Origin: Verrucomicrobiales bacterium
Lineage (GTDB): Bacteria > Verrucomicrobiota > Verrucomicrobiia > Verrucomicrobiales > V1-33
Assembly (NCBI GenBank): GCA_018003315.1
Contig: JAGNEJ010000011.1
Span: 4,807 to 68,806 of the forward strand
Direction of reading: 5' to 3'
Length of the DNA: 64,000 nucleotides
Shown here: positions 43,771 to 46,876 of the stretch, piece by piece
Position numbering within the stretch: position 1 is the stretch's first letter
How the letters are laid out: every line of letters starts with the position of its first letter
The notes under the pieces: generated by a model
Database searches by the model: none
Told to the model about the DNA's origin: nothing
Seen by the model: only the letters and a program-made list of their open reading frames with translations
Translations under genes and position numbers: made by a program

Positions 43771-44159
43771 TCGTGCACTCGACCATTTGCCACCGCGTCA
43801 CCGCCCAGGCTGGTCGTTTCCACCCAGCCGGTGGCGATTGTCAGGAAAATCAGGAGAAGGTGCGGGCGCATGTCAGCGGGTGTTGGGCAGGGGCAATTTA
43901 CATTAAGACTGCATCATGGTGCCATCAGGTAATTTCCGCAGGCACCAATCACCGCAGACCTGTAAATCGACAACCCCTCTAAATTTCTGCAACCCGCGCA
44001 GGACACGGCGTTTTCCTATGTCGGCGTGAGCCTCCGATTTGGAATTCCAAGGTTTCTCTGCGCCAACCGATCCGCTGCCGCGTTCGATTCGCATTTGCTT
44101 CCCACTCCATCTCCCCTACGTTTCCTCCTACACCACGTCCGTGCTGATTCTATGAGCCA

Positions 44160-44193
44160 CCGTTCTCCGTTCTCCGTTCTCCGTTCTCCGTTC
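44160..44193 (+). repeat. heptanucleotide tandem repeat (CGTTCTC) x4 plus a partial unit
   Basis: Read directly: four perfect units at 44161-44188 and the partial unit CGTTC at 44189-44193. The repeat begins 9 nt after the ATG at 44152. Confidence 0.9.
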
Positions 44194-44227
44194 GATCACG
44201 GGCGTTCTGACACTGGCTGCGGGTGGG

Positions 44228-46876
44228 GTGAACCTGTCAGCGGACGATTCCTTTTCTGCGCAGTTGGCGCAGGAGCCGGACGGTCGCCACTTCCTGACAT
44301 TTCCCACCGTGCGGGGCCAGTTTTATACCATTGAGCAGTCGCAGGATGGCGCGGCTTTCGTTCCAGCACCAGGCGGGTTTTATTACGGAACCGGTGAGGA
44401 ACTGCGTTACTGTTTTCTCCACGGCCAGCCGCCTCCGCCGCCTCCACAACCACCGGGCGGAACGCCGCCGCCCAACTGGGGAAACCCGCAAACAAAACCG
44501 GCTTATTTTGTCAGTGCAGACCTGTATTTCTCCGCAGCGGGGGGCTGGGGTGCTGCGGTGGACCGGGCGGATGCCACCGCGACTCCGGATCACTGGCGCA
44601 AGCTGCTGGAGGGGACGTTTCCGCCGGCCCCGGCCGGGCAATCGCGCCTGCTGGGGTTTTCCGTGGAGGACCCGGATGCCCGCTACGATTTCCTGCTCAA
44701 TTTGCTCCACGTCCCCGCGGAGCAATTCCCGGGCGATCTGTCCGATCCGCCCTTCCTGCCGCGCCATCTGCGCGAGGCGCAGTTGCTGGAGGAAAACCTG
44801 CCGCGCATCGTGGGCGAACTGACTCGTCCCGCTGGCACCCCGGCCCCCCAGGCGCTTTCCAGCCCCAAACGCCTGCTGCGGGTGCGCCGCCAGCAGATCG
44901 ACACCAACGGCAACGGGCTGTTCGATGATTTTGAACGAACCTGGGCGGTTGATCCATTCGCTGCCGAGGGGACCGCTGATTGGTTGGCGGCAGATGCCGA
45001 CAGCGACGGCGACGGCCTAACAAACCTTCAGGAACAGACCCTGGGCACCAATCCGAACAATGCGGACACGGATGGTGATGGAGCACTGGATGGACGTGAC
45101 AGTGCCGCGAAAGACCCGACCATCACACCGCTGTGCCAGGTGGTTACCCGGCGCAGCGGCGACTACACCGCCAACGAACGGGTGACCACTGCGCCGCCTC
45201 CAGACAAGATCATTGCCACGCTCAATTGGGCGCTCACGCAGCCCGCTTCCGAAGTCATGGAAAACCCAAAGTGTTTTGACCGATTTCTGGGCACGGGGTT
45301 TGTCGGAGAAATTCCGCCCTTTGGTCCAGCATGGGTTGGTGCCCCGGCGCTGGGAGCGGTGAGCATCGGCTTGTTTCAACGGGGCGTCGGCAACCACGAA
45401 AATGGCCACTTCGAGGCGGCTCGCATCAAACTGGTGCAAAGACCTGCCCAGCCGACCCCCACCCGCGTCAGTTTCCTGAAAATCAGCCGCCGCGCCAATT
45501 TCGGTTTCACACCGCCAAACCAAGAGTGGCATGACCCGGCACTGCTCCAGCCAGGAAACCAGCTTCCATTGGATACCAGCGTCCCCCAAGCCATCGAGGT
45601 GGTGACGTTGGAAATCCCCTCCGACGTTACCGAAAGTCCCGAACTGGAGGTCAGCGGCAGTTTCACAGAGCCCATTCCCTCGCCAGAAAACAACAACAGC
45701 GCAGGCCAAAAATGGAGCTTGGAACTCACGCCGGTGGAGATAAGGCAACCTGCAATCAACTCTGAGGGCACCGTTGGAGATTTAGAAACGGTGCAGGAGG
45801 TGCGCTTCTGCCGTTGGAACAGCCCACATGTCATACCGGGGGGAGATTTAGTGCAGCCCCAGGAGTTTCCCAAAGACGATCCCGATCGCATCGTAATCCG
45901 AATGCCCCTTCCTCATAAAGCAGGCCAAGGCGTGCAAAAAATCCATGTGAGCACGAGTGGGTCCATTGGCTCACGTAACGATGCAGGGGCAGAAGTGGAG
46001 TTGACGGAACTGGCGGGACAGCTAGGAATATTTGAATCACAGCCCATCGCCCTGGTGGCCGATGAGGATGATGATAACTGGGCGGGTGGACGTGCGTCAG
46101 ATGGGGCGTTAAACGACCCCACTTTCCGGGCATGGCCGGGAGGAATTCTGAAAATTAAAGTTCCCGCTTTGCAGGATGCGGTCATCGACTTTCCCATCAA
46201 GAAATTTAGCCACCATTTCACCTGCTCCCTAGTTCATGTCGGCTCCGTGGATGCTGATGCCGCATCGGTGGCCGCCATGATTCAGAACCTGGACCGACTG
46301 CACGAAATCTACGCTCCGCTTCTTGAGAAGGTTGATTTCACCCCAGTGAACCCGGGGGTTGGAGTGCCTGCGATCTCCCCTGACGACCTACAGGCTATTG
46401 CCGGATCGGACCATCAGTTGAGCAGTGTTGAGGTGAATGAGTTGATAGCCAAGATTAATGCCTTTGACCTGCCAGCGGATGCAATCAAACTCGTCTTCAT
46501 CGACAAAACCATTACAGCCACTAGTTTCGGCACGAACCTAGCCTACAAGAATCGCTCAGATATCACTTTGTATTTTTTATCGAGTCTCATATCGTTTGAG
46601 GGGCAAAACATCACGAAGGCTGCTAATACTGTTGCCCACGAGTGCGGGCATAGTTTGCGAGGGGCGGGCCACTCCGAAACCGGAGGAATCTACGACCCGA
46701 GCCTTGGCCCGCCCTTGACAGATCCGGCACTCCCATGGTGGCACTTGATGGCCGACGGAAGGCTGGCCAATGACCTTTCCATGGATCCGCCTAAGAGTGC
46801 CAAGCATTGGTATCTGCGGGACGCCAAGATTGTCAATGAGGGTGCCGGCAACAAGTTTTCCAAGAAGCTCCCATGA
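44228..46876 (+). CDS. large Ca-binding-repeat protein with C-terminal HExxH metallopeptidase-like motif; as sequenced it lacks its signal peptide (see repeat)
   Basis: The first in-frame start is GTG 44228. Thrombospondin-type-3-like repeats are present (DADSDGDGLTN, NADTDGDGALDG), and HECGHSLRGAGH lies near the C-terminus. The upstream ATG at 44152 is one frame off. Confidence 0.6.
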   Translation: MNLSADDSFSAQLAQEPDGRHFLTFPTVRGQFYTIEQSQDGAAFVPAPGGFYYGTGEELRYCFLHGQPPPPPPQPPGGTPPPNWGNPQTKPAYFVSADLYFSAAGGWGAAVDRADATATPDHWRKLLEGTFPPAPAGQSRLLGFSVEDPDARYDFLLNLLHVPAEQFPGDLSDPPFLPRHLREAQLLEENLPRIVGELTRPAGTPAPQALSSPKRLLRVRRQQIDTNGNGLFDDFERTWAVDPFAAEGTADWLAADADSDGDGLTNLQEQTLGTNPNNADTDGDGALDGRDSAAKDPTITPLCQVVTRRSGDYTANERVTTAPPPDKIIATLNWALTQPASEVMENPKCFDRFLGTGFVGEIPPFGPAWVGAPALGAVSIGLFQRGVGNHENGHFEAARIKLVQRPAQPTPTRVSFLKISRRANFGFTPPNQEWHDPALLQPGNQLPLDTSVPQAIEVVTLEIPSDVTESPELEVSGSFTEPIPSPENNNSAGQKWSLELTPVEIRQPAINSEGTVGDLETVQEVRFCRWNSPHVIPGGDLVQPQEFPKDDPDRIVIRMPLPHKAGQGVQKIHVSTSGSIGSRNDAGAEVELTELAGQLGIFESQPIALVADEDDDNWAGGRASDGALNDPTFRAWPGGILKIKVPALQDAVIDFPIKKFSHHFTCSLVHVGSVDADAASVAAMIQNLDRLHEIYAPLLEKVDFTPVNPGVGVPAISPDDLQAIAGSDHQLSSVEVNELIAKINAFDLPADAIKLVFIDKTITATSFGTNLAYKNRSDITLYFLSSLISFEGQNITKAANTVAHECGHSLRGAGHSETGGIYDPSLGPPLTDPALPWWHLMADGRLANDLSMDPPKSAKHWYLRDAKIVNEGAGNKFSKKLP

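Follow-up and report, generated by a model that had tools for sequence, protein, structure and literature searches.

A heptanucleotide repeat in the putative signal-peptide coding region of a modular Verrucomicrobiales protein: a candidate slipped-strand frameshift switch

Repeat array and reading frames at the locus

The DNA analysed here, called the window, is a 64-kb stretch of a metagenome-assembled genome (MAG) from an uncultured member of the Verrucomicrobiales. It contains a long open reading frame (ORF) of 882 codons, which is preceded by a perfect heptanucleotide array, (CGTTCTC)n, and by an ATG that lies in another frame. An earlier note on this DNA had proposed that the array uncouples the gene from its only ATG and signal peptide, and had read it as a candidate phase switch. 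The sequence at the site is gattctATGAGCCAC(CGTTCTC)4CGTTCGATCACGGGC, and its elements are as follows.

44152-44154, + strand: ATG start codon, the sole start that could provide a signal peptide; as sequenced, in a different frame from the long ORF
44153-44155, + strand: TGA that closes the long-ORF frame upstream and overlaps the ATG
44160-44193, + strand: perfect heptanucleotide array, (CGTTCTC)x4 at 44161-44188 plus the partial unit CGTTC at 44189-44193; the proposed slippage site
44189-44242, + strand: remainder of the putative signal-peptide coding region, read in the frame of the long ORF, RSITGVLTLAAGGVNLSA; predicted cleavage after the Ala codon 44240-44242
44228-44230, + strand: GTG, the first canonical start (ATG/GTG/TTG) of the long ORF as sequenced; its product would lack a signal peptide
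44332-44334, + strand: TGA stop of the 60-amino-acid (aa) out-of-frame product from ATG 44152 in the sequenced state

Six nucleotides (AGCCAC) lie between the ATG and the array, and the first unit starts 9 nt from the first base of the ATG. From GTG 44228 the long ORF encodes 882 aa and ends at 46876, one frame away from ATG 44152, while translation from the ATG itself gives 60 aa and ends at 44334. This anatomy, like the frame arithmetic below, was read directly from the DNA, and the sequence, its translation and the ORF analysis agreed with the earlier account in every detail.

Tandem Repeats Finder described the array as a period of 7 with 4.9 copies, 100% matches and a score of 68. This was the top score among the 33 rows returned for the window, and it was the only row with at least four perfect copies of a unit not divisible by three. 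The 14-mer CGTTCTCCGTTCTC, with at most one mismatch, had three matches in the window, all of them within the array; dinucleotide-preserving shuffles gave a mean of 0.05 matches, and 0 of 100 shuffles reached three. The presence of the heptamer array between ATG 44152 and the ORF body is thus far beyond chance.

The unit number was then edited in silico. ATG 44152 was joined to the long ORF at n = 0, 3, 6, 9 and so on, which confirmed the proposed rule that the gene is ON when the number of full units is a multiple of three. The product lengths were 898-933 aa at n = 0, 3, 6 and further multiples, and 60 aa at n = 4. Deletion of one unit, which leaves three, yielded MSHRSPFSVLRSITGVLTLAAGGVNLSADDSF... 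with a length of 905 aa, and three, six or nine units all restored MSHRSPFSVLRSITGVLTLAAGGVNLSA/DDSF (here and below, the slash marks the cleavage site). The restored N-terminus carries R4 and R11, the core ITGVLTLAAGGV and then L-S-A/DD. As 7 and 3 are coprime, the repeat encodes one cyclic heptapeptide, RSPFSVL, in all three frames, and none of these contains a stop.

The (CGTTCTC)n array in the putative signal-peptide coding region is probably a slipped-strand frameshift switch of a modular protein that is predicted to be secreted. If a 7-nt unit were gained or lost in replication, the frame would move by one. A unit number that is a multiple of three (0, 3, 6, 9 and so on) would link ATG 44152 to the 882-codon body, and an exportable precursor of the form M-S-H-(RSPFSVL)k-RSITGVLTLAAGGVNLSA/DDSF... 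would be made, the n-region of which would lengthen by RSPFSVL for every three units. With the four units sequenced, a 60-aa out-of-frame peptide would be produced, and the body would be either untranslated or made without an export signal, so that the locus would be OFF. Programmed ribosomal frameshifting was also considered and was rejected, as the repeat appears to be without a known slippery site or stimulator.

Predicted signal peptide, start codon and signal-peptide-bearing relatives

The translation of the window ORF was 100% identical to MBP7949062.1 (KA004_05355), the annotation of which begins at an internal start and covers only 737 aa. The source MAG (locus tags KA004_) contains four paralogues including the window gene. 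The other three, KA004_16445 (P0002), KA004_12395 (P0123/P0003) and KA004_12410 (P0004/P0124), were 85-87% identical to the window protein in their first ~250-270 residues and diverged completely beyond them. Two paralogues stand in tandem on a 37-kb contig of a second assembly, GCA_020049695.1 (L001), which encodes the same proteins as the KA004 contig; they are referred to as gene 1 and gene 2. The DNA of the fourth paralogue (P0002/P0122) was taken from a third assembly, GCA_963204945.1 (L122).

An exhaustive HMMER search with the N-terminal 272 residues retrieved 34 cluster representatives at E<=1e-3, with 26-39% identity beyond the paralogues. In these representatives the family domain was always N-terminal, in proteins of about 400-1400 aa. 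In most of these representatives, about 30 distant members, a canonical N-terminal signal peptide immediately precedes the domain, as in MKNLFLILVVSLMLPLLGRAD/FTAR and MKTLRVLLLLVGLLSFVPPPAHAETEF. The apparent exception P0141 was due to truncation by the gene caller, and its signal peptide was intact in the upstream DNA; P0140, a truncated distant member, had no upstream signal and no repeat. Because most members have an N-terminal signal peptide before the domain, the family is predicted to be exported, and a product from GTG 44228 (MNLSADDSF...) would be without the signal peptide that its relatives have. All three heptamer-bearing genes were cut by gene callers to arbitrary internal starts (737, 754 and 946/947 aa), and consequently the signal peptide and the switch were both hidden in the annotation. 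One distant member, P0125, divergently adjoins a WXG100 gene and a gene for a 1304-aa FtsK/SpoIIIE ATPase, a type VII secretion-like pair (L123, 1-2373).

The residues encoded between the array and the mature N-terminus have a counterpart in the fourth paralogue, the reading frame of which is intact. The RSITGVLTLAAGGVNLSA region aligns with SAVHLLSLLLLAAGMVNLMA/DDSF of P0002/P0122, and the window residues ITGVLTLAAGGVNLSA, encoded upstream of GTG 44228, are placed by the protein alignment opposite the hydrophobic core and the cleavage region of this signal peptide. This homology is a direct observation, and it supports the proposal that an N-terminal signal lies upstream of the GTG, where distant members also carry one.

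These data bear on a second reading of the locus, in which the true start would be GTG 44228 (or a non-canonical codon such as ATC 44195), the protein would not be exported, and the repeat would lie in a 5' leader with another role or none. GTG 44228 is the first canonical start in frame, and no Shine-Dalgarno-like sequence or sigma-70-like promoter favours it or ATG 44152; no sigma-70-like promoter or terminator was found in 43500-44500. However, when relatives starting at the GTG-equivalent codon were looked for, the two closest paralogues had GGC (gene 1) and TGC (gene 2) at this position, and GTG 44228 thus appears not to be conserved as a start. The residues encoded before it show homology to a signal peptide, and the rest of the family is signal-peptide-bearing. 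All three heptamer-bearing copies retain an ATG 4-9 nt upstream of the array, though the DNA upstream of the window ATG is unrelated to that of L001 and the homology between them begins exactly at the repeat (window 44160). In addition, no Rfam family matched the leader or the region 43500-44500. We consider a start at GTG 44228 very unlikely.

Unit numbers among the paralogues

Three copies of the gene carry the heptamer CGTTCTC at one position, just after an ATG and immediately preceding the RSITGVLTLAAGG codons; they have 13, 4 and 2 full units. Gene 1 reads caccgATGCTCA(CGTTCTC)13CGTTCGATCACGGGCG... (array at 5832-5927 of L001; 13.7 copies with 100% matches in Tandem Repeats Finder), and gene 2 reads cacctATGCTCGC(CGTTCTC)2CGTTCGATCACGGGCG... 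(2.7 copies). Upstream, the flanks of these two genes share 94.9% identity over 176 nt, and downstream they share 98.3% over 1543 nt without gaps; despite this their arrays differ by 11 units. The two are paralogues, not strains. Because of this difference between copies with 95-98% identical flanks, the array appears to be by far the fastest-changing site of the locus, which is the signature of slippage. The comparison of repeat number in related loci that the earlier note had in view therefore gave 2, 4 and 13 units for three paralogues, which come from one MAG or from near-identical ones, and these differences between near-identical copies are observed directly. The unit numbers, the unconserved GTG and the signal-peptide homology all support its reading of the locus as a candidate phase switch.

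Genes 1 and 2 are both out of frame with their own ATG. Gene 1 would be ON at n = 2, 5...11 and 14 (worked out by hand), and gene 2 at n = 1, 4, 7 and so on (by in-silico editing, as for the window). Each ON state of the window gene and of both L001 genes encodes ...VLRSITGVLTLAAGG...A/DDSF. The spacers after the ATG differ among the three copies (6, 4 and 5 nt), and thus each copy has its own ON register. The same device on at least two paralogues with different ON registers would make them independently switching loci. The 13.7-copy tract of gene 1 should be the most active of the three.

A frozen frameshift would give a different account of the same arrays: the repeat would be a mutational hot spot, and the redundant, transposon-associated paralogues inactivated at it would be young pseudogenes without reversible switching. 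The three heptamer-bearing copies are all out of frame, the sole in-frame copy has a degenerate repeat that should not slip, and an array as short as that of the 2-unit copy would not easily revert. Transposase-like genes (IS200-like, HTH_33 or DDE) stand beside the loci, and only N-terminally truncated proteins are annotated by NCBI. However, the bodies behind the three arrays are stop-free over 882, 946 and 839-859 codons, with no other lesion in them, and the frame is broken at the repeat every time. An 11-unit difference between 98%-identical copies is what active slipping yields. Two OFF states per ON state is the neutral expectation of a working switch, so that three OFF of three is unremarkable ((2/3)^3 = 0.30), and 65.6% of genomes are OFF at the heptamer switch of neuO in Escherichia coli K1 (PMC13001214). 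We consider a frozen frameshift unlikely.

It was also asked whether the unit number is an artefact of assembly or consensus, with three (or six) units and an ON gene in the true genome and the number mis-resolved from shared paralogue sequence. The source is metagenome-assembled, and the three paralogues are near-identical from the repeat onward. The two deposited versions of the paralogue contig have lengths of 37,011 and 37,017 nt, an unexplained 6-nt difference. On the other hand, the window array is just 34 nt long, below any current read length, and it is anchored by unique upstream sequence and by paralogue-specific differences about 35 nt downstream (GGGGTGAACCTGTCA vs GGGGGCCACCTGCCA). 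Moreover, three independent arrays would all need to be wrong. An artefact of this kind is very unlikely.

Several observations weigh against a slipped-strand switch at this locus. All three heptamer-bearing copies are OFF in the assembly, and the tracts of 4.9 copies (window) and 2.7 copies (gene 2) are short and would slip rarely. The restored core ITGVLTLAAGGV has a mean Kyte-Doolittle value of 1.79, weaker than the 2.1-3.1 of canonical family members. Protein-guided scans of 185,579 representative genomes and of Joint Genome Institute (JGI) metagenome contigs returned no related locus, and an exact 33-mer of the signal-peptide region likewise had no match in metagenomes. The source is a short-read MAG consensus with paralogous flanks, and the genes adjoin transposase-like genes (IS200-like, HTH_33, DDE) and could be decaying copies. 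With these points taken into account, the slipped-strand switch is still the reading we favour. That slippage is frequent enough to be useful in the living population, can be reversed, and is favoured by selection instead of merely being tolerated is our inference.

In the fourth paralogue the site of the array holds ATGCGTTTCCGCATTTCCGTATTTCCGTTTTTCCGCACTTCCGCC, a repeat of 8 nt that is imperfect (4.9 copies with 83% matches). This gene is in frame, and its product opens with an intact signal peptide (MRFRISVFPFFRTSAVHLLSLLLLAAGMVNLMA/DDSFSAQ). At 4001-4045 of L122, the degenerate 8-nt repeat TTTCCGNN is found where the other copies have the perfect heptamer. This repeat may be a decayed tract locked ON.

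A simple repeat was also found at this position in a distant member with 36% identity (L124; JGI 3300044969, Ga0436604_0000247), the MHRSP of which resembles the window N-terminus MSHRSP. Its upstream ATG region (94-260) encodes MHRSPLRLL...IALLGGG, and a G9 tract at 211-219, in the signal-peptide region, splits the start from the main ORF; a G8 tract would fuse both. The tract may be a second, independent simple repeat at the signal-peptide position, or it may be a homopolymer sequencing error.

In the L001 tandem pair (5300-13739), the 1.5 kb of coding sequence that follow the repeat (about 480 codons) are 98.3% identical in the two paralogues, beyond which the C-termini are unrelated; one of these carries HELLHVLLNSPH. 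The 176 nt of shared upstream DNA includes the 3' end of an HTH_33 transposase-like gene. This arrangement suggests that the pair arose by duplication with replacement of the C-terminal module.

Modular architecture, genomic context and comparison with known systems

Behind the predicted signal peptide, the window protein is built of a conserved N-terminal domain, a calcium-binding-type repeat, a middle region that lies between this repeat and the C-terminal module, and the module itself.

44243-45010, + strand: conserved N-terminal family domain, mature N-terminus DDSFSAQ...; 85-87% identity in three paralogues
44999-45064, + strand: bacterial TSP3 calcium-binding-type repeat (Pfam PF18884, 25.9 bits vs a cut-off of 25), residues 258-279 of the 882-aa ORF
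45899-46873, + strand: variable C-terminal module (325 aa), specific to the window paralogue; contains HECGHSLRGAGH at 46637-46672

The AF2 model of the N-terminal domain (44243-45070) was confident, with a pLDDT of 87.7 and a pTM of 0.85, and was mostly beta with three helices. A comparison of this model with the solved structures of the PDB gave no meaningful fold match (TM<=0.22), and the modelled domain may represent an undescribed fold or domain family. The earlier note had claimed calcium-binding repeats, and one repeat of this type was found, TSP3, just above the cut-off.

The C-terminal module has six homologues, which occur as shorter proteins, and the three that span the module shared 47-53% identity with it. 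HECxHxLRGxxHxE was invariant in the seven sequences, and HECxHxLRGxxHxET, WHxM and a C-terminal SKK[IL]P were invariant or nearly so; the HExxH and a putative third zinc ligand are conserved among the homologues. The module had no Pfam match at E<=1, its best PDB sequence match was at E = 0.55, and a PDB profile search was empty; its AF2 model was unusable (pLDDT 44). Of the protease motif that had been noticed before, the invariant HExxH-type motif held up, and the Pfam and PDB comparisons gave no match for the module. To call it a metallopeptidase would be a guess at the level of the motif.

The neighbourhood of the gene comprises the following features.

46873-47829, + strand: gene for a 318-aa protein with its own N-terminal hydrophobic signal; overlaps the stop of the 882-aa ORF (ATGA)
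42643-43706, - strand: left arm of a 1064-nt inverted repeat, encoding a 347-aa Y1_Tnp (IS200-like) protein
47962-49025, + strand: right arm of the inverted repeat, 90% complementary to the left arm, encoding a second 347-aa Y1_Tnp protein

In each family locus a different gene lies downstream; these genes are non-homologous, encode about 300-415 aa and have their own signal or transmembrane segment. The 318-aa gene may be a module-specific partner or immunity-like gene. The two arms bracket a 4255-nt cassette; their proteins have partial Y1_Tnp domains, are 91% identical and are transcribed outward. The arms could mediate inversion or mobilisation of the cassette. The GC content is 0.53 at 46001-48000, which covers the C-terminal module and the 318-aa gene, vs about 0.61 elsewhere in the window. 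This drop is consistent with a recently acquired or swapped module.

The closest known parallel in unit length is neuO of the CUS-3 prophage in E. coli K1, which carries 3-53 units of a heptamer, AAGACTC, and is ON whenever the number of units is a multiple of three (PMC13001214). As in the window, the heptanucleotide repeat lies in the 5' coding region and gives a full-length product only at multiples of three; the neuO unit number varies widely between genomes, about two thirds of which are OFF. The two differ in the unit itself (AAGACTC vs CGTTCTC), and also in the protein: NeuO is a cytoplasmic enzyme, and its repeat forms an N-terminal extension and is not part of a signal peptide. Furthermore, neuO is a single prophage locus in an enteric pathogen, the switching of which was measured experimentally.

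In the opa genes of Neisseria, a CTCTT repeat lies in the leader-peptide coding region, and the genes form a multigene family in which members switch independently and recombination occurs among paralogues (PMC3960869). The placement of a repeat with a unit not divisible by three in the leader (signal) peptide region is shared with the window gene, and so is the multigene arrangement. However, the opa unit is a pentamer, and Opa proteins are small beta-barrel adhesins of a host-restricted pathogen with a measured switching rate of about 1e-3, whereas the proteins described here are large and modular, with swapped C-terminal modules, and belong to an uncultured Verrucomicrobiales host.

Slippage tracts of the nanH3/autB type are homopolymers or tetranucleotides. 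Slipped-strand mispairing in the region that codes for the signal peptide of an exported protein is reported for Gardnerella nanH3 (bioRxiv 10.1101/2020.09.16.300947) and for meningococcal autB (PMC5118866). The likeness to the present family is that the slippage region encodes a signal peptide, and the distant member in L124 has a G9 tract there. The unit length is different, and nanH3 and autB are single genes.

The family also resembles polymorphic toxin and effector families in its architecture: the N-terminal ~250-480 aa are common, the C-termini are unrelated, each locus has a different downstream gene, and the window C-terminal module recurs in other, shorter proteins. This resemblance is one of architecture only, since Pfam scans detected no known toxin, trafficking or immunity domain, the kind of domain that defines such families, and the downstream genes bear no relation to one another.

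Most documented cases of repeat-driven phase variation come from host-adapted pathogens and commensals. The mechanism proposed here is textbook, and the novelty lies in the host lineage, the protein family and the multi-copy arrangement. Our literature search found no report of repeat-mediated contingency loci in Verrucomicrobia. A broader picture, in which Verrucomicrobiales carry contingency loci made up of an exported modular family with swappable C-termini, partner genes, transposon-associated shuffling and independent heptamer switches, is offered only tentatively, and on balance we doubt it. If true, a multi-copy, independently switchable exported family in an uncultured member of the Verrucomicrobia would widen the known range of contingency loci and extend Opa-like stochastic control beyond host-restricted pathogens. 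For the PVC superphylum (Planctomycetes, Verrucomicrobia and relatives) this would be the first system of contingency loci based on simple sequence repeats, and an uncharacterised protein family would be named as probably under strong, fluctuating selection. Switching would then perhaps serve the evasion of phages or predators, or vary an antagonistic effector.

CGTTCTC arrays also occur outside the family. A scan of representative genomes for (CGTTCTC)x3 returned at least 120 stretches in many phyla, and none of them encodes this family. The arrays were heterogeneous, and many were degenerate intergenic arrays in Bacteroidales. Their orientation relative to long ORFs was weakly biased (51 vs 41 of 128), and among the 20 arrays with a nearby ATG and a long ORF, seven were in frame and 13 were not, as chance predicts. 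The CGTTCTC arrays across phyla were rejected as evidence for a shared system, given their heterogeneity, the chance-level frames and the absence of the family from them.

CGTTCTC arrays of 4-13 copies were observed in Treponema MAGs (L050, L064 and L032) and in L012, L087 and L111. An ATG precedes the array by a few codons in L050, L064, L012, L087 and L111; L032 starts inside its array and thus shows no ATG. The ATGs of L050 and L064 are preceded by aaggag; L032 and L064 have common downstream sequence and arrays of 12.7 vs 12.4 copies. The arrays of these six loci may be analogous switches in another phylum. The Gemmatimonadales MAG JBBRBZ01 has at least 10 separate (CGTTCTC)n loci with up to 20 copies (L006, L009, L011, L025, L033, L035, L042, L065, L075 and L079), and several other MAGs (Kiritimatiellaeota, Bacteroidales and Campylobacter UBA1713) have several CGTTCTC loci each.

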